DNA of 64,000 nucleotides from Candidatus Nomurabacteria bacterium (GCA_020632075.1 JACKGH010000001.1:131216-195215), one strand, 5' to 3'; counted from the first letter of the stretch, positions 4,233 through 35,965 are shown. The notes: generated from the sequence alone by a model not told the origin. Numbers and translations: made by a program.

Positions 4233-4267
4233 AGTGGAAATATTTTCTGTCTGCGTGCGTACGTCTT

Positions 4268-4306
4268 CAAAGCGGGCCAATTCCATTTTGGAATTGGCCC
4301 GCTTTG
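4268..4306. promoter_or_regulatory. Perfect 18-bp-stem palindrome (CAAAGCGGGCCAATTCCA-ttt-TGGAATTGGCCCGCTTTG) in the intergenic region
   Basis: Read directly from the sequence. No T-run follows on either strand. It lies between a terminator and the start of the next gene, so it is an operator- or RNA-structure-like element. Confidence 0.5.
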
Positions 4307-4403
4307 AAACTTCTCTAGCTTCCGTGTCGTAATAACAGAAGCAAGTGGTCGCGAACTTGCATTCGGATATATCAATCAATTGAAATTTGAACTATTGAAT
4401 ACT

Positions 4404-6645: not shown

Positions 6646-8430
6646 ATGTCACAAGAGATCCGTAATATCGCCATTATCGCGCACGTAGACCACGGTAAGA
6701 CCACTTTGACTGATGGTCTTATGGAATTCACAGGTTCACGCGACGAGGGTGCGTCAATGGACAGTAACCAGCTCGAAAAGGAGCGTGGTATTACCATTTA
6801 TGCCAAGAACACCTCGGTGACGTACAAAGACACCAAGATCAACATCGTGGACACGCCTGGCCACGCCGACTTTGGTTCAGAGGTAGAGCGGGTGCTCCGC
6901 TCGATCGACTGTGTGCTTCTTGTGGTAGATGCCCAGGAAGGCCCAATGCCACAGACTCGCTTCGTGCTCAAGAAGTCACTCGAACTCGGCCACAAGCCGA
7001 TCGTAGTGATCAACAAGATCGATAAGCCAGCCGCTGATCCAGCACACTGTGCAGACTTAGTGCTCGAATTATTCTGGGAGCTTGGAGCTTCAGAAGAGCA
7101 ATGTGAATTCCCAGTCGTCTACGCGATCGGTCGCGATGGAGTAGCGAAGCGCAACATGGAGGATGAAATGAAGGATCTTTCACCGATCCTCGATGTAGTC
7201 CTCGAACACGTGCCAGCAGCAAAGGTGTACGAAGAAGGGCAAGATCTCCGTGCGCAGGTATTCAACCTTGGCTACGACAACTTCCTCGGCCGACTTGCTA
7301 TTGCTCGTATCTACGAAGGCAAGATCGCGAAAGGTCAGCAGGTCCTTATGAAGCATAAGGGTGAAGAAATGCATAAAGGCAAGGTGGTAAAGCTCTCAAA
7401 CTACGTCGGTATTCACCCGATCGAGCAGGACGAAGCGTTTGCTGGCGACATTGTCATGATCGCTGGACTTGAAGATATTAATATTGGAGACACGATCACC
7501 GACAGTGAAGATGCTGAGCCACTGCCAGCAATCAATGTAGACGAACCAACAGTCGAAATGCAGTTTCTCGTGAACTCATCACCATTTGCGGGTCGCGAAG
7601 GGAAGTATGTGACTTCTCGTCAGATCGGTGAGCGTCTTGAGAAGGAAATGGAGATCAACGTTGGTCTCCAGGTAGAGCCAGCTGGCGGAGATGCATATAA
7701 AGTAAAGGGTCGTGGTGAAATGCACATCGCGATTCTCCTTGAGAATATGCGTCGTGAAGGCTACGAGCTTTCTGTTTCACAGCCACAGGTGATCATCAAG
7801 GAAGTAGACGGTCAGAAACAAGAGCCGTTTGAAGAAGTGACCATCGACATCCCAAGCGAATATCAGGGAGCGGTCATTGAGCGTCTCAGTAATCGTGGCT
7901 TTATCATGCAAAACATGATCCCGCACGAGAACCAAGTGCGTCTCCTCTTCGAAGGCCCAACTCGTGGTCTCTTAGGCTACAAGAACCAATTCATCATCGA
8001 CACACGTGGCGAGGGTATTCTTGCGTCACGCTTTATCGAATTCCGCGAGTACTATGGTGAGATCAAGAAGCGTCAGGTTGGCTCGATGATCTCTATGGAA
8101 AACGGCAAGGCACTCGCCTTCGCGCTCTTCAATCTCCAGGATCGTGGTGAGCTCTATATCGGAGCTGGTACTGAAGTCTACGAAGGTATGGTGCTCGGTA
8201 ACACCTCAAAGGGTGAAGAAATGACCGTGAACCCAACCAAGGGTAAGCAGCTTACCAACATGCGTGCTTCAGGTAGCGACGATGCGGTGACACTCATTCC
8301 ACACCGCCCGCTCTCGATTGAGATTGGTCTTGAGATCATGCAGGAAGACGAGTACCTCGAAGTGTGTCCAGAATCTATTCGCTTGCGAAAGCAGAAGCTG
8401 AAGGAAAGTGATCGAAAGCGAGGAAAGTAG
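6646..8430 (+). CDS. typA: Translational GTPase TypA/BipA
   Basis: G1 motif [10 protein letters not shown]; DTPGHADF; NKID. Overall EF-G-like domain order without domain IV; BipA-type C-terminal domain; 594 aa from ATG 6646. Confidence 0.9.
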
Positions 8431-8506
8431 TTTTCATTTAAAAGAAGTATGTATAAAACTTGACGTTTTGTACGTACTAAGTAGTGTAGTATTAAAACTG
8501 TAAGTT

Positions 8507-8719
8507 TTGTGTATGAGTAAAAAAACTACAACACCAAGTTTTACTAAGCAGCACTATGGCAAGTGGGTCGCTTTAGGTAGTGGCGGTAAGATACTAGCTT
8601 ATTCAAGAGATTTAAAAACGCTCTCGAATAAGGTTGGTAATAAAAAAGTTGTCTACACGAAAGCTCTAGACCCTCGAAAGATTTACGCTTTTAGCAGCTA
8701 TGGCAGTACAAAGATTTAA
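8507..8719 (+). CDS. Small basic protein with GKWVAL motif (DUF5678-like?), in an AT-rich island
   Basis: 70 aa; its 3' end overlaps the next gene by 20 nt. Local GC is far below the window average. Confidence 0.35.
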   Translation: MCMSKKTTTPSFTKQHYGKWVALGSGGKILAYSRDLKTLSNKVGNKKVVYTKALDPRKIYAFSSYGSTKI

Positions 8720-9122
8720 TTACAGTTGCCAGATTGATGGAGCATCGGGTGATGTTTGTTGTGAAAGGCCTGTTATTGAAGTGACTCTTAGTAGCGGGGG
8801 GAAACAGTTTGTCACACATGGGTTGATCGATTCAGGTTGTGTATCGACGATGGCTGATTCAAGTATCGCTGACTTCTTAGGTATTGATTTAACAACTTGC
8901 CCAGAAACAGAAGTGGGAGGAATTTGTGGTGAAGGTACTGGGTATATGAGTGAGATTGATTTCTATGTCGCAGGTGGAGGTAAAATTTTTTCCGGCCCTG
9001 TTACCTTTGTACACAACTTGCCCTTTTCAATCTTGCTTGGACACAGAAACTTCTTTGATAAATTTGATATTTTGTTTAAGAAGTCCAAGGGTTATTTCAC
9101 CATTAATAGAGTAAGGGGGTAA
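8700..9122 (+). CDS. Retropepsin-like (clan AA) aspartic protease domain protein
   Basis: The motif hydrophobic-hydrophobic-D-S-G (GLIDSGCVSTM) matches the D-T/S-G-A catalytic signature. The downstream LLGHRNFFDKFDI resembles the retropepsin flap / ILG-x-DFL region. It sits in an AT-rich island. Confidence 0.4.
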   Translation: MAVQRFNYSCQIDGASGDVCCERPVIEVTLSSGGKQFVTHGLIDSGCVSTMADSSIADFLGIDLTTCPETEVGGICGEGTGYMSEIDFYVAGGGKIFSGPVTFVHNLPFSILLGHRNFFDKFDILFKKSKGYFTINRVRG

Positions 9123-9237
9123 CTCAGAAATTTAGAGTTACTACGGTGAAGCACTTTGCTGCACATTGTCGTATAATTAACAATAGACTTACTCACGAGG
9201 ACTAACTCACGACAACTATGGAAACTTCATATTTTTT

Positions 9238-9612
9238 TTGGCGCAATTCTTTGGTTTGCTGATCGTGATCTTTGCGGTCAGTGCGCTGTTTCGTCCGCAC
9301 TTCTTGCGTGACGTCACCGATGACCTTGCGCAGGCTTCACCGCTGGTGCGACTCTTCTTTAGCATGGTTGCGATCGGTGGCGGTCTCGCGATCGTACTGA
9401 CACACAATGTCTGGGTTGCTGGCTGGCCACTTATTATCACGCTCATTGGCTGGGGCGGGCTCATCAAGGGTGTTTTGGCGCTGGTGCGTCCACAGTCGCT
9501 TATCTTGGCTGCTGATGTGGTCTATGGCTCTGAGCGACGAGCTTGGGTCACACTAGTGCTGGCTGCGCTCTTTGGTGCGTATCTGACTGCGGTTGGGTTT
9601 GGGTGTTTGTAG
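9238..9612 (+). CDS. Hypothetical integral membrane protein (4 TM)
   Basis: TTG start; hydrophobic; followed by a conserved terminator element. Confidence 0.45.
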   Translation: MAQFFGLLIVIFAVSALFRPHFLRDVTDDLAQASPLVRLFFSMVAIGGGLAIVLTHNVWVAGWPLIITLIGWGGLIKGVLALVRPQSLILAADVVYGSERRAWVTLVLAALFGAYLTAVGFGCL

Positions 9613-9627
9613 GAGTGAAGGGGTGCA

Positions 9628-9678
9628 GGCCGCGTGAGCACGAACCTTTCGGAGAAAGGTCGCTCACGCGGCCTTTCT
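9628..9678 (+). terminator. Conserved extended hairpin terminator, family A (GGCCGCGTGAGC-ACGAACCTTTC-gga-GAAAGGTCGC-TCACGCGGCC + T-run), copy 1
   Basis: ~20-bp interrupted stem; near-identical copy at 10206; related copy at 14172. Confidence 0.7.
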
Positions 9679-9741
9679 CTTTACACAAAGGCATTTTGTG
9701 GTATTTTTCACTCAGATTAATCAAGAAGGAGGTATCGTCTG

Positions 9742-10215
9742 ATGACAACCGTCACCCTTAAAGACGTGTGGAATGACTTCTTGCACGAAAATCGAGTACG
9801 AAGACGTCTGCGAAAATTAGCAAAATCATTCGGGATCAGTAAAGGTTATGTGGGGGTGCTTGCGGTGCTTCCATCGCCAACCGGTCTGAGGCGCAGCTGG
9901 TCGGTGGTCATGCTTGGAGACGAAAAGACTACGTCAGCTGAATCGGATCGATGTTTGCATGTAACTTCTTTGATGACTCATGAATGGAATGCTCAAGGAA
10001 CAGAGCGTAGTGAGCTTGTGTTCTGGAACGGAGTATATTTTGCTGGCGTGAAAACTGGGTATGTTGGTGATCAGGGTCAGCGTGGATCTATCATGCTCAC
10101 ATCAGACATTGCTGGTGCCGGGTCGATAGAAATGCTTCAAAGTTGCATTGAGCATTTTACTGAGTTCTGGAACCTTGTGTATCCAAGGCACAAAGAAAGT
10201 ATTTTGGCCGCGTGA
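9742..10215 (+). CDS. Member A of a four-member paralogous family of small cytoplasmic proteins (function unknown)
   Basis: C-terminal GSIEMLQSCIEHF..FW aligns with the SP-x-V/I-EC-[VI]-x-x-L block of the other three members. The last codons ...LAA-stop are encoded by the terminator stem GGCCGCGTGA. Confidence 0.5.
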   Translation: MTTVTLKDVWNDFLHENRVRRRLRKLAKSFGISKGYVGVLAVLPSPTGLRRSWSVVMLGDEKTTSAESDRCLHVTSLMTHEWNAQGTERSELVFWNGVYFAGVKTGYVGDQGQRGSIMLTSDIAGAGSIEMLQSCIEHFTEFWNLVYPRHKESILAA

Positions 10216-10256
10216 GCGCGAACCTTTCGGAGAAAGGTCGCTCACGCGGCCTTTTT
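10206..10256 (+). terminator. Conserved extended hairpin terminator, family A, copy 2 (overlaps the stop codon of 9742..10215)
   Basis: GGCCGCGTGAGCGCGAACCTTTCGGAGAAAGGTCGCTCACGCGGCC + TTTTT. It differs from copy 1 by one base. Confidence 0.75.
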
Positions 10257-10316
10257 GTTGACAGTGTCAATCATACCGATTACCCTACATTTTAGGTAAT
10301 CAGAAGGGGAATACTG

Positions 10317-10832
10317 ATGCAAGAGACAGTACATACTGAAAGTCCAAGTGAGCGGCAGCCACTTCGCTTCTACTGGCGCCAAGGTGTCTCAGACGAGGAT
10401 CTTACCAATGCGGTATATGATCATGTGCTCGCTTTGGTTACATCGTACGGATATGGTCAAGAGGGGGTTGGTGGAGTGAAGATCTACCTGCCTTTCATCC
10501 TTCCAGAAGATGGTAGTCTCGCCAATGCACATCGATGGGTGGTGCCGATCAATACTGATGAGGTGTCGGACCGCGCCATGAATGCCTTCATGGCGCGGTG
10601 GGAAGAGTTGGAACAGATCTGGCGTCAAGATCCTGATATTCTCATCAGAACATCTGGCGACATCATTCATGTTGGCTACTCACTCGACATCGAGGACGGC
10701 AACATCGCTTCGCCTGCGGTGGAATGTATCTTATGCCTGCCAGGCTTCGATCTGGAAGAGTTGTTTGAAGATTTCCCTGACGAGCTCGTTGAACTCTGGG
10801 ATAAAGGAGAATTCTCTCGTGTGTTCTACTGA
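10317..10832 (+). CDS. Paralogous family member B
   Basis: Shares DIIHVGYSLDIEDGNIASPAVECILCLPGF with C (DVYHVAKRVGIETYGLASPTVECVALLRDPG) and D (DVYYVAERIGEVQKVGVMPSIECVMWLQGP). The N-terminal halves also align (FYWRQ / LGWRM...VPF...W). Confidence 0.6.
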   Translation: MQETVHTESPSERQPLRFYWRQGVSDEDLTNAVYDHVLALVTSYGYGQEGVGGVKIYLPFILPEDGSLANAHRWVVPINTDEVSDRAMNAFMARWEELEQIWRQDPDILIRTSGDIIHVGYSLDIEDGNIASPAVECILCLPGFDLEELFEDFPDELVELWDKGEFSRVFY

Positions 10833-10839
10833 CGGTCGA

Positions 10840-10865
10840 GGGCGCTTGGTACAAGCGCCCTTTTT
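10840..10865 (+). terminator. Rho-independent terminator GGGCGCTTG-gta-CAAGCGCCC + TTTTT
   Basis: 9-bp stem and T-run directly after the stop of member B. Confidence 0.7.
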
Positions 10866-10904
10866 GTTGCTACAATATTCACATTAGCAATTCACTCAAT
10901 TTGT

Positions 10905-11294
10905 ATGGAAGAACTACTTAGTAATCTTGATGTCGTGACTGTTCTAGTGTCATTTGTATTGGCATTCTTACTCGGTTGGTTGTGGTATTCGCCAAAGATG
11001 TTCCTTAAGCCGTGGGCAGCAGGACACGGCATAGATACGACGGGACCAAAGACTGGCATACTGAAACCAATGGTGGCACAAGCTGCCGGCACCCTCTTGC
11101 TAGCAGTCATTACCAACATGGCTGCTCAAGATGGACATGTAGGGCACGCAGTAATAGTGGCAGTGACAGTTGCGTTTTTCATCATGTCGAGCAACCTCTA
11201 CAAGAATCCAAAGGCATGCGTGCCTGCACGTATAGAAGCGGGGTACATATTGGCCATGGTCGCGGTTATGGTGGCTGTCAATATGGTGCTGTAG
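10905..11294 (+). CDS. DUF1761-like small membrane protein
   Basis: LGWLWYSPKMFLKPW matches the G-x-LWYSP-x-lFGK-x-W signature. 4 TM. Confidence 0.5.
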   Translation: MEELLSNLDVVTVLVSFVLAFLLGWLWYSPKMFLKPWAAGHGIDTTGPKTGILKPMVAQAAGTLLLAVITNMAAQDGHVGHAVIVAVTVAFFIMSSNLYKNPKACVPARIEAGYILAMVAVMVAVNMVL

Positions 11295-11315
11295 TTTTTA
11301 ACCATTTAGTAAAAT

Positions 11316-11504
11316 ATGAAAACTATTGCGTGTTTAGATTGCAGTCAGCAATTCAGTGGTGAAACTCCTGAAGAAGTAATGCAGGCTATGATGCCACACT
11401 ACATGGTGGACCATAAGGAAGTCATGGAAGGTGGAAATGAGGAAAAGAAGAAAGAATGGTTTGCTGAATTTCAACGACGCTGGAATGTAGCAGAGAATAG
11501 TTAG
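11316..11504 (+). CDS. DUF1059-like small protein
   Basis: MKTIACLDCSQQFSGETPEEVMQAMMPHYMVDH resembles DUF1059 (MK-x-x-C-x-D-x-G-x-x-C-x-F-x-x-x-x-ETEEE-x-x-x-x-x-x-x-H). Confidence 0.5.
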   Translation: MKTIACLDCSQQFSGETPEEVMQAMMPHYMVDHKEVMEGGNEEKKKEWFAEFQRRWNVAENS

Positions 11505-11599
11505 CAGAATTGCAAAAAGCCTAATGGACACACTAGGCTTCTTGTTGACTCTGTGCACTACATGTTGTATTGTCCAATGAGCAGAAGGGAGGAACGTAC

Positions 11600-12112
11600 A
11601 TGCTTCAAAGAGGGGAATTGGCGCTTGGTTGGAGAATGACCAAGCCAGTCGAAGTGTTTCAAGATGACATGCGTGAGATCATGAAAGCAATGCTGCTCTC
11701 GTCGGACTACATCGGTGATGGGCTTCTGGTCATGCGTATTCGTGTGCCGTTCGTCTACAGGCACAGCATGCCTGAATACAAAGACTTTCCACTGATGGCG
11801 CCAATTGGCGACATTCGCTTGTCGCAAGAGCAAGTTGGGCGCATGAATAAGACCTGGGTCGATCTGTACTACAGGTGGATCAGTGACAATGATGGAGTGC
11901 ATACTCAGATTCGTAGTGAGGGTGACGTGTATCATGTTGCCAAGCGTGTCGGGATCGAGACGTACGGTCTAGCATCACCGACGGTCGAGTGCGTCGCGCT
12001 CTTGCGTGATCCGGGTTGTCCCTTCATGGAACTGTGCGAAGGAGCACTCGACATCTTTTGGGAAGAGTCTGGGCTGATCGCGTTTGGTCCGACTATCGAA
12101 GACAGCAAATAG
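11600..12112 (+). CDS. Paralogous family member C
   Basis: ATG 11600 has a GGGAGG RBS. The conserved SPTVECVALLRDPGCP block is shown under member B. Confidence 0.6.
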   Translation: MLQRGELALGWRMTKPVEVFQDDMREIMKAMLLSSDYIGDGLLVMRIRVPFVYRHSMPEYKDFPLMAPIGDIRLSQEQVGRMNKTWVDLYYRWISDNDGVHTQIRSEGDVYHVAKRVGIETYGLASPTVECVALLRDPGCPFMELCEGALDIFWEESGLIAFGPTIEDSK

Positions 12113-12121
12113 TACTACTGA

Positions 12122-12146
12122 GGTCGCCCTTTGGGCGGCCTTTTTT
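12122..12146 (+). terminator. Rho-independent terminator GGTCGCCC-ttt-GGGCGGCC + TTTTTT (the GCCC-TTT-GGGC family)
   Basis: Hairpin and T6 directly after the stop of member C. Confidence 0.75.
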
Positions 12147-12162
12147 GATACACTGATTCAGT

Positions 12163-13380
12163 ATGAAAATTGCTTCTGGTTTTTTGGCTGCACTCGTCTT
12201 GCTAATGAGCGTGCCACAGGCGCAAGCGGCGGCAGTGAATGAGGAGTACGTGTGGCAACTCACTGCCATCTCTGAGTATGTGGAACGCTTACTTGGAGTG
12301 CATCCGCCACTTGATACCGCTGAAAAGCGAGACATCATCGCAGCCGGCACGGCGTGGACAGTGGCTTCGCAGGAGGAGAATGGGCACTTTGGATATGAGT
12401 ACGCACCATATGATGGTGTGTATCTGCGAGGAGAAGGGATGGTGCGGCAGGCGGGTACACTTTTTATGTTGTCTGAAGTATATCTGCAGCAGACTGAAAA
12501 AGATCCAAGGATCGCCACTGCAATTGAACAAGCGATCGATTATTTTGAAAGCATCAGTCTAGAAGAAGGCTCTTTTTGGTGCATCAAGAATTCAGAGCGT
12601 AGTACGAAGTGTGAACTTGGTAGCGCAAGTCTGGCTTTGATCGGCCTTGTGAACTATGTGACAGCGGTGCCAGAGAAAGAGAAGGTGTATGAGTCGCTGA
12701 TTGAAAATTATTTTAACTACCTCCGAGTAGCGAAGTTTGTTGGGAAGGGTTTTAGTGCAAATTACGACGCTGAAGATAGTTTTAGTGCAAAGGAGTCGCC
12801 ATTCTACAACGGTGAAGCTATGTTGGCTCTAGTGAAGTATTATCAGTACCGACCGGATAACGAGGTGAAAGATATGCTCCAAGAGACGTTTGAGCATTTA
12901 CGCAAGCAGGAGCACGAGTCGCCGCTTTATTTATGGATCATGGCCGCGCTCAAGGAAATGAAAGTGCTGTGGCCAAATGAAGCGTATGTAACATACGCAA
13001 AGGATTTTACTAATGAGCGATTGGTGAGCGCGGCCACTCGCCATCATCTTACTCATAACTATTGCGCGCCACTAGAAGGTTTGGTGAGTGCGTATAGCGT
13101 ACTTGAAGGAACCGCTGACGATGAACTGCTTACGCAACTGTACGATGAGATCCAGTATTGGCTGTCTCGCACGACGGCTTTGCAGGTTGGTCGTACGACA
13201 CCATATCGCGTGAACACTATAGATGGTGTGTTGCAACTACAAACAGTCACAGATCCTGCTCAAGCGTACGGTGGTTTCTTAACGGGTGAAGAGGTGTTGA
13301 CTCAGCGTATCGACTTTACGCAGCATTGTGTGAGTGCGTACTTACAAACGTTGGTGGATATTGAGGGTGAGGAGCTGTAA
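12163..13380 (+). CDS. Secreted hypothetical protein, alpha-helical repeat (possibly alpha/alpha-toroid-like)
   Basis: Signal peptide MKIASGFLAALVLLMSVPQAQA. Recurrent helical hairpin motifs (LALIGLVNY, GEAMLALVKYY, LWIMAALKEM). No confident family. Confidence 0.5.
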   Translation: MKIASGFLAALVLLMSVPQAQAAAVNEEYVWQLTAISEYVERLLGVHPPLDTAEKRDIIAAGTAWTVASQEENGHFGYEYAPYDGVYLRGEGMVRQAGTLFMLSEVYLQQTEKDPRIATAIEQAIDYFESISLEEGSFWCIKNSERSTKCELGSASLALIGLVNYVTAVPEKEKVYESLIENYFNYLRVAKFVGKGFSANYDAEDSFSAKESPFYNGEAMLALVKYYQYRPDNEVKDMLQETFEHLRKQEHESPLYLWIMAALKEMKVLWPNEAYVTYAKDFTNERLVSAATRHHLTHNYCAPLEGLVSAYSVLEGTADDELLTQLYDEIQYWLSRTTALQVGRTTPYRVNTIDGVLQLQTVTDPAQAYGGFLTGEEVLTQRIDFTQHCVSAYLQTLVDIEGEEL

Positions 13381-13383
13381 GGT

Positions 13384-13406
13384 GGCCGGCGCCGAAGGCG
13401 CCGGCC
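13384..13406 (+). terminator. Palindrome family B (GGCCGGCGCC-gaa-GGCGCCGGCC) directly after the stop of 12163..13380
   Basis: Perfect 10-bp stem. Its T-tail is weak. The identical 23-mer recurs at 14306 inside a CDS. Confidence 0.5.
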
Positions 13407-13427
13407 CTTGTGCTACACTATTTTCAT

Positions 13428-13634
13428 ATGGATCCAAAAGTACAAGAACAACTCGACGAGCTCGAAATGAAGGTTAATGCGGTGTATACGTCAGTCGAGA
13501 AGATCCGCAAGTACATGCTAATCACTGCTTGGGTGACGATCGCGGTGATCGTTTTGCCACTGGTGGGTCTTGTGTTTGCTATTCCTGCCTTACTTAGCAC
13601 GATCAGTGAAGCTACAGCGTTAATGCAGTTTTAG
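13428..13634 (+). CDS. Small membrane protein (one TM), hypothetical
   Basis: MDPKVQEQLDELEMKV... followed by a hydrophobic helix. The start could instead be 13410. Confidence 0.35.
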   Translation: MDPKVQEQLDELEMKVNAVYTSVEKIRKYMLITAWVTIAVIVLPLVGLVFAIPALLSTISEATALMQF

Positions 13635-13692
13635 TTGACAAAAACCCCTGACGTCGTAGGGTAGAGAAAAGTGTTCATTGGGAGAGCTTGTC

Positions 13693-14181
13693 ATGCGCAT
13701 ACGTGACTTGATGCAAGAGATGCTGCTTAGATTTGGTGAGGCATTTGTTCGTTTCGTGGTGCGTAACCGTATCATGCTGCATCTCAGTCGTAACAAATTC
13801 AGTTATGAAGCATACATCAGCTTGATCGTGTATATACCGGAAGCTAATGGTCGCCGAGTGTTTACGAAGATGTGGCAATTCCCGGTTCGTAAGCAGTCAG
13901 TGACGGAGCGTGAAGCAGTAAGAATGCAGGAGCACTATCGTGAGCTGCAAGTTAAGTGGTTGCGGGCGGGGGACAAAGACGACGTCTTTCGTCTCCATGA
14001 CGTCTACTATGTAGCTGAACGGATCGGTGAAGTACAAAAAGTTGGTGTTATGCCGTCGATCGAGTGTGTTATGTGGCTCCAAGGTCCTATGCACGATGAT
14101 CTGGCTGCCAGCATTCGAAAAAGCTTCCCGTACTTTTGGTGGATAGCAACTGGCCAGAAGTTGCCTGATGCGGCCGCGTGA
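13693..14181 (+). CDS. Paralogous family member D
   Basis: ATG 13693 is preceded by GGAGAG. The MPSIECVMWLQGP block is shown under member B. The C-terminal ...DAAA-stop is encoded inside the family-A terminator stem. Confidence 0.6.
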   Translation: MRIRDLMQEMLLRFGEAFVRFVVRNRIMLHLSRNKFSYEAYISLIVYIPEANGRRVFTKMWQFPVRKQSVTEREAVRMQEHYRELQVKWLRAGDKDDVFRLHDVYYVAERIGEVQKVGVMPSIECVMWLQGPMHDDLAASIRKSFPYFWWIATGQKLPDAAA

Positions 14182-14220
14182 GTGCCTTTCTTCGAAAGGC
14201 CGTGCTCACGCGGCCTTTTT
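14172..14220 (+). terminator. Conserved extended hairpin terminator, family A, copy 3 (GGCCGCGTGAG-TGCCTTTC-ttcg-GAAAGGC-CGTG-CTCACGCGGCC + TTTTT), overlapping the stop of member D
   Basis: Same outer arms as copies 1 and 2, with a diverged centre. Confidence 0.7.
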
Positions 14221-14244
14221 GTTTTGGGTGTATAGTAGAAGGGT

Positions 14245-14718
14245 ATGAAAAATGCTCTCATTGTTTTTGTCTTGCTCACTCTGGGTGGCATATTGTTGTA
14301 TAGTTGGCCGGCGCCGAAGGCGCCGGCCGAGAATCCGGCTGAACCTGAAGTCCCGCTGTCGAGCTATGCAATATTTATCCATGATGAAGTTAGTGTGCCG
14401 GTTGACTCCCGGAGGGTAGATCTCTCAGGCAGAGGTCTTAACGGATCGCTAAAGGCGGAAATTCGCCAGCTTACTGAGCTACGCGAACTTGATCTTGCAC
14501 ACAACAACTTCACTGGTTTACCCGCTGAAGTTGGTCAATTGTCGAAACTTGAAGTGCTCAATTTGTCCGATAATCCACTGACTGGACTGCCGCACGAGCT
14601 GGGGAATCTGCAAAACTTGAAGACACTTGATCTTCGTGGAACGCAGTATTCCACATATGATTTAAATGTGATTCAGGCTGCTCTGCCAAGTGAAGTTGAA
14701 ATACTGACAGATCAGTGA
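14245..14718 (+). CDS. Secreted leucine-rich-repeat (LRR) protein
   Basis: Signal peptide. Four or more LRRs (LRELDLAHNNFTGLP, LSKLEVLNLSDNPLTGLP, LQNLKTLDLRGT). The family-B palindrome is embedded at 14306-14328, encoding WPAPKAPAE. Confidence 0.7.
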   Translation: MKNALIVFVLLTLGGILLYSWPAPKAPAENPAEPEVPLSSYAIFIHDEVSVPVDSRRVDLSGRGLNGSLKAEIRQLTELRELDLAHNNFTGLPAEVGQLSKLEVLNLSDNPLTGLPHELGNLQNLKTLDLRGTQYSTYDLNVIQAALPSEVEILTDQ

Positions 14719-14744
14719 TTGGAATTACGGTATACTGATTTTAT

Positions 14745-15761
14745 ATGAAACGAAACACTTTTCTGATGCTGCTCGCGTTTTTGGTCGTGCCCGTAACTAC
14801 TTCCGCCTACGATGGGTTCGGTAGAATTGATCGTAACAATCTCGATGATGAGATCGTCGATCAATTTCCTCTCCCGATCTTGTTTGGTGTCGATCTCTCA
14901 ACAGTTGTACCAGACTTTGGTGACCCCAGAGACGGTGGAGAACGCTCTCATGAAGGGCAAGATATTCGCGCACCAAAAGGAACGCCGATCGTTTCCCCGA
15001 CCGAGGCGATCGTGATCAAGACCGGTGATGGTGTGTACTCGGGGAAGTATGTATACACTGCCAATCCTGGCGGTGAGACCTTCCGTTACATGCATCTTGA
15101 TACGATCGCTTCTGATCTTGATTCTGGCGACCTCCTTGATGTGGGGGACTTCATTGGTACTGTCGGTGATACAGGCAATGCTCCCGAGGGTGTCTATCAT
15201 CTCCATCTTGAGATCCTTAATGAAGACAATGATCCAACTGATCCATTTGAACGTTTTGATCCAGCAGGATTCACACTTAAGGAAAAAATGTCATTCTTGC
15301 GTGACATCTTTAGTGGAATGAAACAAGACGAGGAGTATGCTGAGTTTTTGGTAGAGACATTCAATAGTGACTTCATGACAGCGTATCAAAAAGGTTACTC
15401 CATGCCGAATGTGATCGATGAGGTGCTTGAAGATGCTGGTGCGAGTACGCAGTCGCAACAGTTGCAACGCTTTACTGAGCTTATTGCAGCACTCCCGATG
15501 GCGCTTCAAATGGAGCTTCGTAGTGGCGATCAGGGGCCGGCTGTGCAGCTGTTGCAGTTGTATCTTATTTACACCGGTAACGGGCCGGCGCGAGACAAGC
15601 TGCGAGCAGCGGGACCAACCGGGTACTTTGGGCTGGTCACAACTGCTGCGCTGGCAGAGTTTCAGAAAGATAAGCTCATTATTGATAACAAAGGTGTATA
15701 CGATGCACAGACCAGAACTGGTATGATGAAGTACCAGTATCCAAATTTAAATTTCAACTAA
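14745..15761 (+). CDS. M23 family metallopeptidase with C-terminal peptidoglycan-binding domain (PG_binding_1-like)
   Basis: HEGQDI...D and HLHLEI motifs (HxxxD / HxH). C-terminal GDQGPAVQLLQLYL...GYFGLVTTAALAEFQ. Signal peptide. Confidence 0.8.
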   Translation: MKRNTFLMLLAFLVVPVTTSAYDGFGRIDRNNLDDEIVDQFPLPILFGVDLSTVVPDFGDPRDGGERSHEGQDIRAPKGTPIVSPTEAIVIKTGDGVYSGKYVYTANPGGETFRYMHLDTIASDLDSGDLLDVGDFIGTVGDTGNAPEGVYHLHLEILNEDNDPTDPFERFDPAGFTLKEKMSFLRDIFSGMKQDEEYAEFLVETFNSDFMTAYQKGYSMPNVIDEVLEDAGASTQSQQLQRFTELIAALPMALQMELRSGDQGPAVQLLQLYLIYTGNGPARDKLRAAGPTGYFGLVTTAALAEFQKDKLIIDNKGVYDAQTRTGMMKYQYPNLNFN

Positions 15762-18427: not shown

Positions 18428-18952
18428 ATGTGTAAAGCATCGATCTTCGCTGAGCGTTGGCGGTTTGCTGAAGAAGGCGAGCTGCTTTCGATCGGCATTA
18501 CCAAGACTCGTCATGGAGCGTTCCATGAGCCGGGTGTTCCGGTGAATGAGTGTGTGGTGTGCACGAAGACAGGAGACCGTCTGTCGGTCACGATTCCGCC
18601 TCTTCTGCAGCAACAGTACGGTCTTGCACCGATCGAGGAAGCTGTCTTCTGGCAGACGCCCGGCAGTGATTCTCAGGTGATCCAGGATCAGGTGGTATTT
18701 GTGAAGCATCCGAAACGGCCATCTGTTGCCCTCTCGCTTTTCGCTGCTGGCGGTGCGACCGCGGTGGTCCTCTCGGTGGTTGATCGGCAGTCCAGTGATG
18801 CTGAAGTCATCGATGAAATTCTGCTTCTTTCTAGCGAAACGGAAGCACTCATCAGAGTACTTGGAACAGGTGTTGATGAGGCTCGTCAGCAAGAGGAGTT
18901 GGTCATCACACCGGTGTCTGATGTGACAATCCGCACTGCTGCTGCAGCCTGA
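18428..18952 (+). CDS. Hypothetical protein with CVVC motif
   Basis: ATG preceded by GGAGG, followed by the terminator at 18989. It is preferred over the overlapping minus-strand ORF 18206..18997. Confidence 0.5.
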   Translation: MCKASIFAERWRFAEEGELLSIGITKTRHGAFHEPGVPVNECVVCTKTGDRLSVTIPPLLQQQYGLAPIEEAVFWQTPGSDSQVIQDQVVFVKHPKRPSVALSLFAAGGATAVVLSVVDRQSSDAEVIDEILLLSSETEALIRVLGTGVDEARQQEELVITPVSDVTIRTAAAA

Positions 18953-20390: not shown

Positions 20391-21104
20391 TTATGCAGCT
20401 AGATCGAGTTCTCTGAGGAAGGTAGCGAGCTTACTCCCTTGGATCTTTCGATATTGATTTGGCTTTAGTTTACCCATTTCAATGTTCATGATCCGTACTC
20501 GCTTGAGTGACTGTACTTGATAGCCAAGTGCAGCGCACATACGGCGGATCTGATGCTTCTTGCCTTCGGTAAGTACGATGGTGAAGCGCTTGTCATTGCG
20601 GTCATTGGCTACTAGGTGTGCTGTTTTTGTGCGGTAGCCTTCAATATCAACTCCGTTTTGCATGGCTCGAAGAAACATGCCAGAGACCTTTTTGTCGACA
20701 GTGACATCGTATTCTTTTTCATGACCAGCCTCAGGATCAAGCATTGGACCAGTGATCCGACCATCATTTGAAAGGATAATGAGACCTTCAGAGTCTTTGT
20801 CGAGCCGGCCGACTGGCGACACGTGGGTAATGCCAAAATCCTTCGCGAGTCGGCCGGCGATATCAGTTTCGCCCTCAGCTGGGGAATGGGTAATAACACC
20901 ACGGCCTTTGTAGTAGGCGAGGTAGGTCTTCGGTTTGGTCTTACCGGTTACTTCGACCGAATCAGTCTCCTGTACCTGTTGTCCCATTTCAGCGACTTTG
21001 CCGTTTACTTTGACCTTGCCTTTGGCAATGAGCTCGTCCGCTTCACGACGAGATGCAACACCGGTGTGTGCAAGGTATTTGTTGATTCGCATTGGGAATT
21101 CCAT
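20391..21104 (-). CDS. rsuA: Ribosomal RNA pseudouridine synthase, RsuA/RluB family (S4 domain + catalytic domain)
   Basis: S4 motif INKYLAHTGVASRREADELIAKGKVKVNG. The catalytic motif is VGRLDKDSEGLIILSNDG. The C-terminal KKHQIRRMCAALG is also present. The protein is ~232 aa from MRINKY. Confidence 0.85.
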   Translation of the reverse strand: MEFPMRINKYLAHTGVASRREADELIAKGKVKVNGKVAEMGQQVQETDSVEVTGKTKPKTYLAYYKGRGVITHSPAEGETDIAGRLAKDFGITHVSPVGRLDKDSEGLIILSNDGRITGPMLDPEAGHEKEYDVTVDKKVSGMFLRAMQNGVDIEGYRTKTAHLVANDRNDKRFTIVLTEGKKHQIRRMCAALGYQVQSLKRVRIMNIEMGKLKPNQYRKIQGSKLATFLRELDLAA

Positions 21105-21139
21105 GGCCGATACTATGTCATAGATTGAGCGATTTGTAC

Positions 21140-21177
21140 AGAAATGGCCGGCGCCCTTCGGGCGCCGGCCATTTCTG
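21140..21177. terminator. Palindrome family B variant (CAGAAATGGCCGGCGCCC-ttcg-GGCGCCGGCCATTTCTG), downstream of the minus-strand gene 21187..21717
   Basis: 17-bp perfect stem. Confidence 0.6.
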
Positions 21178-21186
21178 TCTCGTATA

Positions 21187-27883: not shown

Positions 27884-27910
27884 GTTAGGAGGGAAGTGAA
27901 GATACAAAAA

Positions 27911-27935
27911 GGACCCTATACACAGGGTCCTTTTT
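27911..27935 (+). terminator. Rho-independent terminator GGACCCT-atacac-AGGGTCC + TTTTT
   Basis: Read directly from the sequence; an A-run precedes it. Confidence 0.75.
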
Positions 27936-27980
27936 GTATGTGTTGACAAAACAATAATTTATGACGTAAAATACTAGGAC

Positions 27981-29120
27981 ATGAATATTGGTGAAGCGCC
28001 AGTCCGCGGTTTGCATACACTACAAAAGATCTCAATGTCACTCATGGGAGTGCTTGTTTTGTTGACGTTCATTGGCGCTAATCTTCATGCACTGTTGTGG
28101 CAGTCTTCAGAGTGGCTCGTTTCGACGGTATTGCCAGCAGTGGTTGTTGATCTCACTAATGAGGAGCGTGCGGAACTTTCAGCCGCGCCGCTTCAGCGAA
28201 ATGCGCTCTTAGACGAAGCGGCGCGGCTGAAGGCCGAACATATGGCTAAGAACGAGTACTTCGCTCACTACAGTCCATCTGGTGTTTCACCATGGCATTG
28301 GTTCAATGAAGTTGGCTATGTCTACGCACACGCCGGTGAAAACCTGGCGATCCACTTCACTGATTCAGATGAAGTGGTTGAGGCGTGGATGGATTCGCCA
28401 ACACACCGTCAGAATATTATTGATCCAAAGTACACCGAGATCGGTGTTGGTACTGCTAAAGGTACGTATGAAGGTTACAACACGGTATACGTCGTGCAAC
28501 TGTTTGGTGCTCCGGCTGTAGCGCCAGCGCCAAGACCTGTTCCAGTCGCACCAACTCCAACTCCGGCACCAGAACCACTTGTGGTGGCCAGTGCTCCTGA
28601 ACAAGTGGTTGAGGCTGTTCCAGAACTAGCTTCTCTGCCTGTTCCGGTGCCGGTTGCAGTAGATTCTGAATCTACATCTCGGGCTGAGGTGATCGAAGAG
28701 GCTGCTATAGAGACTCCGGTTGTGGTAGCTGTCGAAGAGACGTCAGCACCAGAATCTGCACCAATAGCAGAACCTGAGCCTACTGAAGAGCAAACTATTA
28801 GCTTCATCAATGATGTTGTGGTGGTCAGCTCGCCAGTCATCGCTACTTCTTCTGGCCTTGCTGTAGCTGAGATCATAGTGCCTCAAGAGCAGCCTGCAGG
28901 TGCAACCATTGTATCGTATGCTACGCGACCAAATGAAGTGTTGCAGTGGACCTACTTTGTACTTGGTACACTTGTGCTACTCATGCTCAGTACTTCGATT
29001 GCGCTTGGTCTGCGACGATTGCACTACGTGCAAGTGGCATATGGATTTGCTCTCATTATTGCAATGGGGGGACTTTGGTACGCACACTCACTTCTCACGA
29101 CTGGCGCAGTCATTGTCTAG
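27981..29120 (+). CDS. CAP/SCP/PR-1 domain protein (YkwD-like), with a Pro/Ala/Val-rich linker and C-terminal TM helices
   Basis: EAWMDSPTHRQNIIDPKYTEIGVGT is the CAP signature H-R-x-N-il..y..iG-G. The PAPxPV linker and two C-terminal hydrophobic helices follow. Confidence 0.7.
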   Translation: MNIGEAPVRGLHTLQKISMSLMGVLVLLTFIGANLHALLWQSSEWLVSTVLPAVVVDLTNEERAELSAAPLQRNALLDEAARLKAEHMAKNEYFAHYSPSGVSPWHWFNEVGYVYAHAGENLAIHFTDSDEVVEAWMDSPTHRQNIIDPKYTEIGVGTAKGTYEGYNTVYVVQLFGAPAVAPAPRPVPVAPTPTPAPEPLVVASAPEQVVEAVPELASLPVPVPVAVDSESTSRAEVIEEAAIETPVVVAVEETSAPESAPIAEPEPTEEQTISFINDVVVVSSPVIATSSGLAVAEIIVPQEQPAGATIVSYATRPNEVLQWTYFVLGTLVLLMLSTSIALGLRRLHYVQVAYGFALIIAMGGLWYAHSLLTTGAVIV

Positions 29121-29147
29121 TCGCCTTCTTTTGATACTATTAGTGGC

Positions 29148-29594
29148 ATGACAAAGCCACAGCATAAGGTTCTGGTCACTTCAGCTCGACCTGCCGTGTC
29201 CAAAGGGTCACAAGAGCACGACCTCTTTGCTTCAAGACCAGCTGCCGGCTTCCCTGCGCCTGGCGATGATCTGGTGGAGCGTCCACTTGATCTCAATGAT
29301 CTGATGGTTGAACATCCAACCGCAACCTTTTTCGTGCGGGTATCAGGTGATTCTATGGAAGGAGCTCGGATTTTTGATGGTGATATTCTTGTAGTAGATC
29401 GTTCGATTGAGCCTAAGAACGGCCTGATTGTAGTGGCTGCGGTCTACGGCGAGTTGGTAGTGAAGCGTTTGCGTAAGCTGTCTGGTGGTATGGCGCTCGT
29501 TTCAGAGCAAGAAGGCTACGAACCGATCAGTATTGATGAGGCCGAAGGATGTTATATTTGGGGTGTAGTGACCGGCAGTGCGCGGGTTTTTTAG
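29148..29594 (+). CDS. umuD: S24 LexA/UmuD-like self-cleaving peptidase; no HTH, so UmuD-like
   Basis: Ser nucleophile in SGDSM, Lys in VVKRL. ~148 aa with no DNA-binding N-domain. Confidence 0.7.
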   Translation: MTKPQHKVLVTSARPAVSKGSQEHDLFASRPAAGFPAPGDDLVERPLDLNDLMVEHPTATFFVRVSGDSMEGARIFDGDILVVDRSIEPKNGLIVVAAVYGELVVKRLRKLSGGMALVSEQEGYEPISIDEAEGCYIWGVVTGSARVF

Positions 29595-29627
29595 TAAGAA
29601 ATAGACAGTAAATTCGTCCTCGAACAT

Positions 29628-30812
29628 ATGAATACAAGAGTAACAAAATGGGGGTTTGTCGCCATGCTGGCGCTTTTTATCACAACGCCACTTTCGGTTG
29701 ACGCTCGTGAGCAAGTAGCAGCTTGGCTACCATGGTGGTCTGAAGAGGCTGGGATCGAAAGTGCGACAAAGCACATGAAGAAGATCGATATTCTGTACCC
29801 ATTCGTGTTCGAGGTGAAGGAGGACGGTTCCCTTTTGAATCGCGTTGATTTTGATGATAAGCAGTGGGAAGACCTCTTTGATGAGGCTGATGATGAGCGT
29901 GTAAAAGTGATCCCGACTGTGATGTGGTTCGATGGAGATGCGATCCATGAGGTTTTGAGCGACAGAAAGGCTCGCAAGGAGCACATCGATGAGATCGCGC
30001 GAATGGTGCGTAAATACCGCTTTGATGGGGTAAATATTGACTATGAAGGGAAGTTGTCGGAGACGATCGATGACTACTCTGATTTCCTCAAGGAACTCAA
30101 TGATGAGCTTGGCCGTCGTCGCTATCTTACCTGTACGGTAGAGGCTCGCACTCCCCCAGAATCACGATGGAAAGAAGTGCCAGAAGTAATCAACTATGCC
30201 AATGATTATGAAGCAATGAACAAGCACTGTGATTGGATCGAAATCATGGCCTATGACCAGCAGCGAGCCGACTTAAAGCTCAATGACGAGCGTCGTGGGG
30301 TACCGTATATGCCAGTGGCAGACACCGAATGGGTAGAAAAGGTGGTAGAACTTGCGCTTGAGGATTTTGATGAAGATAAGGTATTACTCGGCGTACCGAC
30401 TTACGGACGAGCCTGGGATGTGACGGTGGCGGCCGATTGGTATCGAGATTACGAGCGGGTAGCTTCGCTTAATCATCCACGCATCATGGAACTGGCTGAT
30501 AAGTACGACGCACCAATCGGCCGCACTGAAGGCGGCGAAGCAGTGATCAGCTACTTCCCTGAGGATTCTGTCTGGAAGATCTTTAATGCGCTACCGACCC
30601 CCAAAGGCACCCCAAAGGGCTTTGAAGCTGCCGCTAAAGCGCTTATGGTAGCGACTTATGCCGATATTGAGATCCCGGTTCGAGTCGTGATCTGGAGCGA
30701 TGCTGAAGCGATCGATGAGAAGCTTGATCTGGTGAAAAAGTACGACCTCAAGGGAACTGCGATCTTTAAGGTTGACGGCGAGGAAGATCCGGACGTGTGG
30801 AAGCTTTTCTAG
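29628..30812 (+). CDS. Glycoside hydrolase family 18 (chitinase/peptidoglycan-hydrolase-like), secreted
   Basis: Signal peptide. Catalytic motif FDGVNIDYEG (D-x-x-D-x-D-x-E). IEIMAYDQQ. Confidence 0.7.
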   Translation: MNTRVTKWGFVAMLALFITTPLSVDAREQVAAWLPWWSEEAGIESATKHMKKIDILYPFVFEVKEDGSLLNRVDFDDKQWEDLFDEADDERVKVIPTVMWFDGDAIHEVLSDRKARKEHIDEIARMVRKYRFDGVNIDYEGKLSETIDDYSDFLKELNDELGRRRYLTCTVEARTPPESRWKEVPEVINYANDYEAMNKHCDWIEIMAYDQQRADLKLNDERRGVPYMPVADTEWVEKVVELALEDFDEDKVLLGVPTYGRAWDVTVAADWYRDYERVASLNHPRIMELADKYDAPIGRTEGGEAVISYFPEDSVWKIFNALPTPKGTPKGFEAAAKALMVATYADIEIPVRVVIWSDAEAIDEKLDLVKKYDLKGTAIFKVDGEEDPDVWKLF

Positions 30813-30832
30813 GATAGAAGACAGAGAGGAAA

Positions 30833-30868
30833 AACCGGCCCCCGAAGGGGCCGGCCGGTTCTTTTATT
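30833..30868 (+). terminator. Rho-independent terminator (AACCGGCCCC-cgaa-GGGGCCGG(ccgg)TT + T-run), related to palindrome family B
   Basis: Read directly from the sequence. Confidence 0.65.
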
Positions 30869-30977
30869 TTCTCCCAGTAGAAACACAAACTCTAGGTCTT
30901 ATATTGACATAATGTTTTATTTGGTACATAATTATCAACTAGTTGTAGACCTGAATCACAATATCAACCAGGAGATG

Positions 30978-31523
30978 CTCATGAGCAAAAAGGTATTTAA
31001 TGTTGTTTGGGTGTCGACGATGCTCTTCATCGTCCTCGCGTTCTATTCAATGGAGGATGTGTCATGGTGGTGGAGTCTTTGGCCGTTCTCCGGCCTCGCC
31101 AGCTGGATGGTCCATATGTATCAGATTTTCCGCTGGAGGGAGACTGATCCACTGGAATTCAATCGTGTGAGTCGTGATTGGGATGGTCCAGACGACACCG
31201 GCGGTGACCTACCGATTATGCTGGGGTTTGGTCCGATCGTGTTAGTGTTCGAAATCGCATTTTTGGCACACAACTGGAACGACCTTAAGATAAGGAGAAG
31301 TTCCCAGCAGTCTTCCGGTAGGGCGCACAGTACGAAGCGTTGTCCTGAATGCGGCAGCATCATGTCGTACGACGATGGTGTCTCCAGTTGTCATTCCTGC
31401 GACGTGCATGTCAATTCGAGGTGTGAGCAGCTCGATGATGCAGTAAGGTCAATTGACATGGAAGCGCTTAAGAAAATGATGGATGAGAAGGGTTTGAGCA
31501 GTATCACCATTCCCATCCGTTAA
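30978..31523 (+). CDS. Membrane protein with C-terminal zinc ribbon, hypothetical
   Basis: GGAG RBS before ATG 30978. Trp-rich TM region; CPECGS...CHSC. Confidence 0.45.
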   Translation, partial: LMSKKVFNVVWVSTMLFIVLAFYSMEDVSWWWSLWPFSGLASWMVHMYQIFRWRETDPLEFNRVSRDWDGPDDTGGDLPIMLGFGPIVLVFEIAFLAHNWNDLKIRRSSQQSSGRAHSTKRCPECGSIMSYDDGVSSCHSCDVHVNSRCEQLDDAVRSIDMEALKKMMDEKGLSSITIPIR

Positions 31524-31538
31524 CATCAAAGTTCCCTC

Positions 31539-31570
31539 ATCGCCCGGTTCTGACACCGGGCGATTTTTTA
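31539..31570 (+). terminator. Rho-independent terminator ATCGCCCGGT-tctgac-ACCGGGCGAT + T6
   Basis: 10-bp perfect stem. Confidence 0.75.
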
Positions 31571-31617
31571 TGATTCAATTTGAGTTTTACTACTCAAAGA
31601 TTGCTATACTATCCAGA

Positions 31618-32868: not shown

Positions 32869-33184
32869 AACATAATCGACATTTGTACTTAACTTTCTAT
32901 AAGCGTCATGTCTCATCGAACTCAATTTTTCATTGAAAATGCACGATTTTACACTAATGCAAAGGTCAGTCAAAAATAGTTATCAACAGATACTTTCGGA
33001 CAAAGTAAAAAAGACCTAGTAGAATGTTGGAAGATCGATTGAAGTGACGAAGTGTCCATAACAGGCTGAGCCTTTTCAAAACATTGGATACCGAGTCATC
33101 TCCACAGAAAACTTCAATCGAGAACTTCCTCGTTTGTACAACGCAGAAGTAAAAGTTATTCACAAAACTATATAAATAATAAAC

Positions 33185-34330: not shown

Positions 34331-34351
34331 GTTCTAACGATGCAAACAAAA

Positions 34352-34376
34352 AACTTCCTTTACTGGAAGTTTTTTG
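34352..34376 (+). terminator. Rho-independent terminator AACTTCC-tttact-GGAAGTT + T-run
   Basis: Read directly from the sequence. Confidence 0.65.
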
Positions 34377-34437
34377 TTGTATACAACCCGGGTCTCACAC
34401 TGCTGTAAGGTGGTATGATGGTAAGGTTAATCTTTAA

Positions 34438-35538: not shown

Positions 35539-35557
35539 GCTGCGGTACACTATCTGT

Positions 35558-35965
35558 ATGGATATACAGCACAGCACATATCACAAATTTTTACGCGTAG
35601 CACTTGTCGTGTGTGCGGTGGTGTTGGTGTTTGAGAGTGGGCTGTTGAGTGAATCAACCGCACGAGTTGCTGAGGGTACACATGCATATCTCGCAAACGC
35701 AGTTGGAATGTCTGCCTCTGTACAGCCAACAGAACTCAATACCCTTACAGCTGAATTGACTGCTAAACAGCGTGAACTTGATGCTCGCGAAGCAGCACTT
35801 CGTGAGCGAGAAATTGCAGTCGATCTTAACTCTGGTGCTGTTAGCTCGAATACGTCTTCATATGTACTCTCCAGCATCCTGTTCGTACTGTTGGTGCTTA
35901 TCATACTCAACTACGCATTAGACTATTTACGGTCTCGTGAGGAGCGTGAGGTGCAACCTGTGTAA
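35558..35965 (+). CDS. Small membrane-anchored coiled-coil protein
   Basis: TM helix, an AELTAKQRELDAREAALREREIAV coiled coil, then a C-terminal TM. Its frame overlaps the previous gene's 3' end. Confidence 0.4.
   Translation: MDIQHSTYHKFLRVALVVCAVVLVFESGLLSESTARVAEGTHAYLANAVGMSASVQPTELNTLTAELTAKQRELDAREAALREREIAVDLNSGAVSSNTSSYVLSSILFVLLVLIILNYALDYLRSREEREVQPV

Follow-up and report, generated by a model that had tools for sequence, protein, structure and literature searches.

A terminator-like hairpin repeated at unrelated gene ends in a variable island downstream of typA in Candidatus Kaiserbacteria

How does the same strong hairpin come to lie at the ends of genes that do not resemble one another? 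This question is raised by a stretch of 4.6 kb downstream of typA in the 1.0-Mb genome of an uncultured Candidatus Kaiserbacteria of the CPR/Parcubacteria, where a palindrome of 44-46 nt, followed on the + strand by a run of T, occurs three times and twice carries the stop codon of an open reading frame (ORF). We analyzed this locus within the 64-kb stretch of DNA available (hereafter, the window) and within ~183 kb of loci from relatives (~130 kb when near-duplicate loci are counted once), which were found through TypA. The explanation that we favor, with a probability of about 60%, is that the hairpins belong to a locally propagated, REP-like family of Rho-independent terminators, copied without the genes upstream of them inside a hypervariable island.

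A two-tier hairpin followed by a run of T

The original prediction had placed copies of the element at 9628, 10206 and 14172, and all three were found at these positions on the + strand, each with an outer and an inner stem. Copy 1 (9628..9682; hairpin 9628-9673, T-run 9674-9682) has outer arms at 9628-9639 and 9662-9673 and an inner stem at 9644-9650 and 9654-9660, with the 5' bulge ACGA and the loop GGA; its sequence is GGCCGCGTGAGC ACGA-ACCTTTC-GGA-GAAAGGT-C GCTCACGCGGCC, with the tail TTTCTCTTT. Copy 2 (10206..10259; hairpin 10206-10251, T-run 10252-10259) reads GGCCGCGTGAGC GCGA-ACCTTTC-GGA-GAAAGGT-C GCTCACGCGGCC, with the tail TTTTTGTT. Its hairpin differs from that of copy 1 by a single change (A->G at position 13), and the two copies are 93% identical over 58 nt. 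Copy 3 (14172..14225; hairpin 14172-14215, T-run 14216-14225), whose sequence is GGCCGCGTGAGT GCCTTTC-TTC-GAAAGGC-CGT GCTCACGCGGCC with the tail TTTTTGTTTT, has the 3' bulge CGT, a G-C closing pair and the loop TTC. The 12-nt outer arms had been described as identical throughout; this is true of copies 1 and 2, while the left arm of copy 3 agrees at 11 of the 12 positions (GAGT, giving a G-U pair).

The 11-nt core of the arm, GGCCGCGTGAG, occurs six times in the window, in both arms of the three copies, compared to 0.03 occurrences expected from shuffles, and none of 100 shuffles reached six. The repetition of the hairpin is therefore not due to chance. Even when up to two mismatches were allowed, the arm 12-mer was present in the 64 kb at the three hairpins only. 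As RNA, the three copies have folding energies between -36.7 and -37.3 kcal/mol, with z scores between -5.6 and -6.2, and 0 of 200 shuffles were as stable; each fold is made of 12-13 outer and 7 inner pairs, about 19-20 bp in all. We also built a covariance model (R1) from four copies, the fourth coming from a sister species described below, and ran it with filters off on the window and on the relatives' loci. Copies 1, 2 and 3 scored 73.2, 76.9 and 79.6 bits, respectively; nothing else in the window rose above the level of generic terminators, leaving the other 59 kb empty, and the relatives' loci contained one copy only. A scan against Rfam, at gathering as well as permissive thresholds, gave no match at the hairpins.

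The three hairpins lie at the 3' ends of a predicted membrane ORF of 124 amino acids (aa; 9238..9612), of ORF A (157 aa; 9742..10215) and of ORF D (13678..14181), all on the + strand, starting at +15 nt (copy 1), -10 (copy 2) and -10 (copy 3) relative to the ORF ends. At least five T directly follow each hairpin on its 3' side, on the coding strand only. The complementary strand folds too, but without a U-run after the fold, so the element is a one-way signal for genes of the + strand. Copy 3 was also detected by a consensus terminator scan. A stable GC-rich hairpin, a strand-specific U-tract and a co-oriented position at an ORF 3' end, which are sequence criteria for an intrinsic terminator, can thus all be read here, in line with the proposal that the copies are used as terminators. 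From this canonical anatomy, the hairpin and its U-run are predicted to halt RNA polymerase at the ends of three units: the membrane gene (copy 1), ORF A (copy 2) and ORF D (copy 3). Other terminators of the window likewise begin 5-35 nt past stop codons, often with long perfect stems, so the design of the hairpin fits this genome.

Long stems are usual here. Other perfect palindromes, with arms of 14-20 nt, are found at 4266-4308, 27902-27939, 28178-28231, 34345-34378 and 40037-40070; the one at 28178-28231 has 17-nt arms and a 20-nt interior and lies inside an ORF with a CAP domain.

The T-run of copy 1 merges into a -35-like TTTACA at 9680 with an extended -10, and that of copy 2 into TTGACA at 10256-10261, so each small gene looks like a tightly packed transcription unit of its own. 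Gaps of a few nt between stop codon and terminator are typical of bacteria with uncoupled ("runaway") transcription, and a short gap has been used as a proxy for it (PMC7858274); in our locus the two often overlap, which agrees with this proxy. Speculatively, a hairpin so near the stop codon may also slow translation termination, considering that E. coli genes with a hairpin (REP) less than 16 nt from their stop codon are reported to be translated less, according to a passage of PMC12306157 that cites its ref. 17.

Gene ends and the island downstream of typA

We asked whether the genes that end at the hairpins are related to each other, as the original prediction treated A and D as paralogs and offered two possibilities, duplication of their 3' ends together with the terminator or insertion of the element in frame. 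ORF B (171 aa; 10317..10832), ORF C (180 aa; 11570..12112) and ORF D (167 aa from a TTG start, 162 aa in its database form), all on the + strand, are old paralogs with 19-28% aa identity and E values from 1e-13 to 3e-6. They share a conserved ..SP.VEC.. motif, and the AlphaFold model of the family has a pLDDT of 53, which is too low to use. ORF A is not demonstrably a member of this family: its comparison with D gives E = 0.016 at 17% identity, and nothing significant connects it with B (no match) or with C (E = 5.9). Homolog searches with ORF A and with a B/C/D profile returned only the same metagenome-assembled genome (MAG), leaving A to D all orphans; the only database match of ORF A is itself, KC877_01870 from a Candidatus Kaiserbacteria MAG.

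The true paralogs B and C end in terminators of their own (10838-10862 and 12120-12142, respectively), which are unrelated to the element, and copy 1 begins 15 nt past the TAG stop of the membrane ORF, which is unrelated to A-D. The first G of the hairpin is precisely where identity among the copies sets in, with no DNA similarity upstream of the hairpin base; past the hairpin, it reaches only into a short T-rich tail of a sort that unrelated terminators of this locus carry too. Moreover, the element is 89-98% identical between copies, versus the 19-28% aa identity of the paralogs. Identity beginning at the hairpin base, together with the age of the paralogs and the unrelated gene upstream of copy 1, indicates that the gene ends did not duplicate with the terminator.

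What the element does provide, as had been proposed, is a stop codon in frame. The TGA at positions 8-10 of the left arm is the stop codon of both ORF A (10213-10215) and ORF D (14179-14181), in the same reading frame. ORF A ends with ..AGT ATT TTG GCC GCG TGA (..ESILAA*; SILAA*), and ORF D with ..GAT GCG GCC GCG TGA (..LPDAAA*; DAAA*), of which the last three codons and the stop (GCG GCC GCG TGA) overlap copy 3. The two ORFs were said to share the first bases of the element as their last codons; Ala-Ala-stop is indeed common to both, while GCGGCCGCGTGA is present in copy 3 only, copy 2 having TTGGCCGCGTGA (Leu-Ala-Ala-stop) instead. When read in frame 2, the element stops at once (GCC GCG TGA, Ala-Ala-stop), whereas frames 1 and 3 would add ~29 and ~17 residues, respectively. 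This explains why all three fused cases, including the one from the sister species, use frame 2. TGA is a rare stop in the window (6 of 45 ORFs), and four of these six ORFs, namely A, B, D and LRR, are found in the island and its flank. Other window proteins end with AA or LAA without carrying the element (18428-18952 and the minus-strand gene at 20391-21104).

The closest species, represented by L031, L032 and L033 (GCA_020428785.1), has a TypA that is 96% identical in aa and 84% in DNA. It carries exactly one copy, at L031:3981-4024, with the sequence GGCCGCGTGAGC-GCCTTTC-GGA-GAAAGGC-CGT-GCTCACGCGGCC-TTTTTGTG, which is four edits away from copy 3 (~91% identical). This copy is better conserved than the surrounding genes, as the DNA identity between the sister species and the window is 64.6% for a neighboring 405-aa gene and 70.5% for a DUF1761 gene. 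It follows a 159-aa membrane ORF that is unrelated to anything in the window island and whose stop codon is again the TGA of the arm (..AGC TTG GCC GCG TGA, SLAA*). The ortholog of the 405-aa gene comes shortly after it; in the window, the corresponding position is taken by ORF C and another terminator. The element therefore occupies non-orthologous sites in two species and is fused to the stop codons of three unrelated ORFs. We also considered the terminator of the D-family gene of the sister species (L031:5359-5856) as a decayed copy and rejected it: with a score of 17 to copy 3, it falls below the unrelated terminators of B (24) and C (22), and this gene shares with the element only its end, GCCGCGTAA.

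In the window, typA (6646-8430) and an LRR/M23-peptidase gene pair (14245-15761) enclose twelve small ORFs of the + strand. Comparison of the stretch from typA to the LRR/M23/CNNM genes (8431-14244) with the corresponding loci L031, L035, L037, L040, L043, L045 and L047 revealed a different gene content in each of them, even in the species with 96% TypA identity, and most of the genes of this stretch are orphans. Relatives with a TypA identity of 88-89% have other gene sets downstream of typA and no copy of the element. The region downstream of typA is a hypervariable island, and within the DNA available the copies are restricted to it. The contigs identical to the window and those of the relatives belong to neighboring run accessions (SRR14234111-16, SRR15882951), from which it can be presumed that the species share a habitat and that exchange between them is possible.

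Two hairpins of more distant relatives, at L035:17789 and L045:9355, were tried as members of the family and rejected, as they scored 21-28 bits and have only a generic GGCCG/GCCGCG stem base in common with it. The first region contains, at L035:17791-17830, a perfect 18-bp hairpin (GCCGCGGGAGAAAACGAC-AGCC-GTCGTTTTCTCCCGCGGC) followed by T6, with a folding energy of -46 kcal/mol; it lies past a 109-aa ORF of a relative whose TypA is 89% identical and has the same GCCGCG.GAG stem base as the element (27.7 bits).

A second palindrome, GGCCGGCGCC-GAA-GGCGCCGGCC, is found in the window at 13384-13406, 14306-14328 and 21146-21170, and in relatives at L031:8115-8137, L043:13904 and L035:14373. Two identical window copies are 922 bp apart: one lies 3 nt past the stop codon of the 405-aa gene, without a T-run, and the other falls within the LRR ORF and is translated there as ..WPAPKAPAE... 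The third has a flipped loop (TTC) and is part of a palindrome with 19-nt arms (21138-21178). The copy of the sister species is identical, and the more distant relatives have variants, one of them with a compensatory G/C swap. The arms give 10 matches, compared to 1.15 expected. More generally, this lineage seems inclined to reuse GGCC-based palindromes.

Possible recombination at the hairpins and the ways they could have spread

The four copies differ in their interiors. The bulge is on the 5' side (A/GCGA) in copies 1 and 2 and on the 3' side (CGT) in copy 3 and in L031; the pair closing the inner stem is A-U in the first two and G-C in the other two; and the loop is GGA in copies 1 and 2 and in L031, and TTC in copy 3. 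Copy 3 has an interior that is 5-6 edits away from copies 1 and 2 when inverted and 11 edits away when read directly, and blastn aligns it on the minus strand. As the T-run is on the same side in all copies whatever the orientation of the interior, we read this difference as flipping between the inverted arms and not as insertion in two orientations. Flipping of a segment between perfect inverted arms is a known behavior of palindromes, and it is probably in this way that the interior of copy 3 became inverted.

A second possible sign of recombination concerns ORF A, which has a promoter-like site (9680-9707) and an AGGAGG upstream of its ATG, and which is bracketed by copies 1 and 2 as direct repeats of a 578-bp unit. 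A contig of 730 nt (L010) from the assembly of another sample (ENA ERZ28655585, WANG18-1_SAMN08389260 scaffold_207593) shows the order membrane-gene end, copy 1, ORF A, copy-2-type hairpin (with the diagnostic G) and copy-1 downstream flank, corresponding to window positions 9543-10254 followed by 9677-9694. This junction is the one expected of unequal crossover or circle formation in the 36-nt core common to copies 1 and 2, and it would result if the ORF A unit were duplicated in tandem or cut out as a circle. The idea that the copies mark duplication units is thus supported for the two that flank ORF A. Short-k Logan contigs break at the repeats, and so do the short contigs of the same strain that were the only ones matched by exact protein.

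In the explanation that we favor, the three elements would be copies of one strong terminator that ends the membrane gene, ORF A and ORF D units. The hairpin would have been copied alone, apart from the upstream genes and leaving no target-site duplication. The likeliest route would be template switching or recombination at the palindrome, after which the copies would have exchanged sequence by homologous recombination. The fused stop codons would be a by-product of tight packing and of selection on the reading frame, and hence no sign of shared gene ancestry.

Several points weigh against this explanation. The word "local" holds for the window and the ~183 kb of relatives' loci, out of a 1.0-Mb genome, and the termination activity is deduced from sequence. 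The L010 junction could be an assembly artefact. In addition, covariation lends the structure no support: all 18 aligned stem pairs are paired in the four copies, 17 of them being invariant and one showing a C to U change that keeps a G-U pair. As the pairs are either invariant or changed on one side, the structure rests on thermodynamics, and what is conserved is the sequence. The outer arms show 1 change in 96 positions while the interior varies, and such invariance could mean sequence-specific recognition by a protein instead of simple terminator function.

Could the hairpin be a true mobile element? In this alternative, which we consider unlikely, a REP/REPIN or a very small MITE would be moved by a RAYT or an IS200/IS605-type enzyme encoded elsewhere and would have many copies outside the window. 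The original prediction had suggested a REP/MITE-like mobile cassette, and the part of this claim that stands is the repeated unit independent of its flanks. The perfect palindrome with sharp boundaries, the non-orthologous positions in two species, the interior present in both orientations and the second GGCC-based palindrome family recurring in the lineage would all agree with mobility. However, comparison of the flanks (TGCA/TTTC, TTTT/TTTT, ATGC/TTTT and GCTT/TTTT) revealed neither a consistent target-site duplication nor a common target sequence, and no transposase, RAYT or integrase domain was present in 30 ORFs searched against Pfam (upstream of typA, in the island and at 27981-40006). 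The element has no GTAG-type head, and its T-run keeps the same side even when the interior is flipped. The three copies fall within 4.6 kb of the 64 kb (P ~0.015 for random placement of three points), the covariance model found none elsewhere in the window and the relatives' loci added a single one. Public collections that do not include the window's own genome were scanned with the exact-arm pattern GGCCGCGTGAG-N14-28-CTCACGCGGCC; GTDB representative genomes gave 7 matches, JGI metagenomes 16 and IMG/VR 0, with no true copy among them. The GTDB and JGI matches are all lone GC-rich hairpins from DNA with a GC content of 55-74%; their interiors are unrelated to the element and they lack a T-run, and they were therefore treated as chance. 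BLAST against plasmids and phages gave partial matches only (E >= 0.04).

Somewhat more doubtful is the possibility that the hairpin is primarily a recombination joint, at which small orphan gene units enter, leave or amplify, either by plain homologous recombination between copies or through a site-specific enzyme, termination being a secondary or combined role. ORF A, with its promoter-like and ribosome-binding signals between near-identical direct copies, looks like such a unit, and the L010 junction would be its duplicate or circle; the island content that differs between close relatives, and the arms that are invariant across species while the interior varies, point in the same direction. 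On the contrary, no integrase or recombinase was found among the scanned ORFs of the window, the sequence shows no attC-type core sites (GTTRRRY), other terminators mark the borders of most genes of the island, B, C and the 405-aa gene among them, and the junction itself is open to the doubt about assembly mentioned above.

We regard as improbable that the element is a regulatory hairpin recognized by a protein or an RNA, with the invariant 12-bp arm as a specific binding site acting, for example, on mRNA stability, on translation at the stop codon or through a C-terminal Ala-Ala degron. It is true that the arm is conserved in sequence and not in structure only, that the E. coli report cited above connects hairpins near stop codons with lower translation, and that three unrelated proteins gain ..AA-COOH from the element, two of them ..LAA. 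Nevertheless, no binding partner is known, and with four copies only, recent copying explains the invariance equally well. The degron idea is weakened by the window proteins that end with AA or LAA without the element, as AA-COOH is evidently not avoided.

A more adventurous combination of these ideas, and a quite improbable one, would make the element a portable 3'-end module that packs last codons, stop codon and strong terminator into 46 nt, the Ala-Ala (Leu-Ala-Ala in two cases) being reminiscent of the C terminus of the ssrA degradation tag, and with the arms serving as a joint for capture, excision and amplification of orphan-gene cassettes in the variable island, similar to an integron without a known integrase. 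Finally, duplication of the hairpin and the last codons together with paralogous genes, after which the hairpin alone stayed conserved, is largely refuted and has very little probability left: two of the three copies do end ORFs with ..AA*, D does belong to the B/C/D family, and the D-family gene of the sister species also ends with GCC GCG TAA (..TAA*), but ORF A is not demonstrably of the family, B and C have other terminators, the membrane genes that precede copy 1 and the L031 copy are unrelated, and the terminator of that D-family gene is no closer to copy 3 than unrelated ones.

Proteobacteria are well known for families of repeated stem-loops. For the Candidate Phyla Radiation, whose genomes are small and streamlined, a limited literature search turned up hardly any description of them. 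Our case offers an example of a probable terminator that was copied independently of genes, that donated a stop codon to unrelated ORFs and that may then serve as a substrate for recombination changing the copy number of the gene enclosed, and it provides a mark for the hypervariable island beside typA in Kaiserbacteria. With copies confined to this island, the element would be no more than a modest curiosity; with copies all over the genome, it would represent a first REP-like family for the lineage.

Farther along the window, a single ORF of 7780 aa (40097-63439) contains several internal repeat families with 60-80% identity (e.g., 52628-52924 and 54653-54949). Between a Peptidase_S24 ORF (UmuD/LexA-like; 29148-29594) and an ORF for an IMS-family polymerase (UmuC/DinB-like; 31570-32868) lie a GH18 gene and a small zinc-ribbon-like ORF.

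Likeness to known repeats and terminators

Like ordinary intrinsic terminators, the element combines a GC-rich hairpin with a U-run directly after it, and is placed on the coding strand at the 3' ends of ORFs. It differs from them in that one sequence of 44-46 nt is reused at unrelated gene ends and in a second species, and in its long two-tier stem (approximately -37 kcal/mol) with the stop codon inside.

Correia/NEMIS elements of Neisseria and the Rickettsia palindromic elements are 100-150 bp long, have terminal inverted repeats (TIRs) and target-site duplications and reach tens to hundreds of copies. Like our element, they are palindromic repeats able to end transcripts or to add codons to host ORFs. 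None of their MITE-type features, namely the size of 100-150 bp, the TIRs with target-site duplications and the high copy number, was seen here.

Imperfect palindromes 3' of cassette ORFs, often over the stop codon and bracketing the cassettes as direct repeats, are also the rule in integron attC sites and Vibrio cholerae repeats. Unlike these, the element has no R'' (RYYYAAC) or R' (GTTRRRY) cores, with no GTTRRRY at the 3' end of any copy, no integrase domain or IntI was found in the scanned ORFs, and most neighboring genes lack the element. Its T-run and the promoter-like sites point instead to ordinary transcription units.

Identical stem sequences in many terminators of one genome are known from the uptake sequences of Neisseria (DUS) and Pasteurellaceae (USS), according to the mention of Kingsford et al. 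2007 in PMC12306157. Uptake sequences, however, have a density of about one per kb and are also found singly within genes, whereas the 12-mer is present in three hairpins only.

As a repeat, the element resembles the REP, BIME, ERIC and SLS families (the last described by Cozzuto et al. 2008, PMC2267715), which are likewise short, highly similar palindromes at gene 3' ends, with unrelated flanks and in both orientations, and which, according to a long-standing discussion, may be maintained by gene conversion or copying. The published criteria for REPs ask for a palindrome of 14-40 nt without a T-rich tail, the T-tail being what separates terminators from REPs (PMC12306157). As its T-run is always on the same side, our element would be classed as a terminator and not as a REP. 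It is longer (44-46 nt), has a T-rich tail in every copy and is not extragenic, since copies 2 and 3 and the sister-species copy overlap ORFs by 10 nt; it is also limited to 3 clustered copies in 64 kb, with no GTAG-type head and no RAYT in the window ORFs scanned with Pfam. Judged by its anatomy, the element is thus functionally an intrinsic terminator and, as a repeat, a member of the known kind of stem-loop and terminator families.

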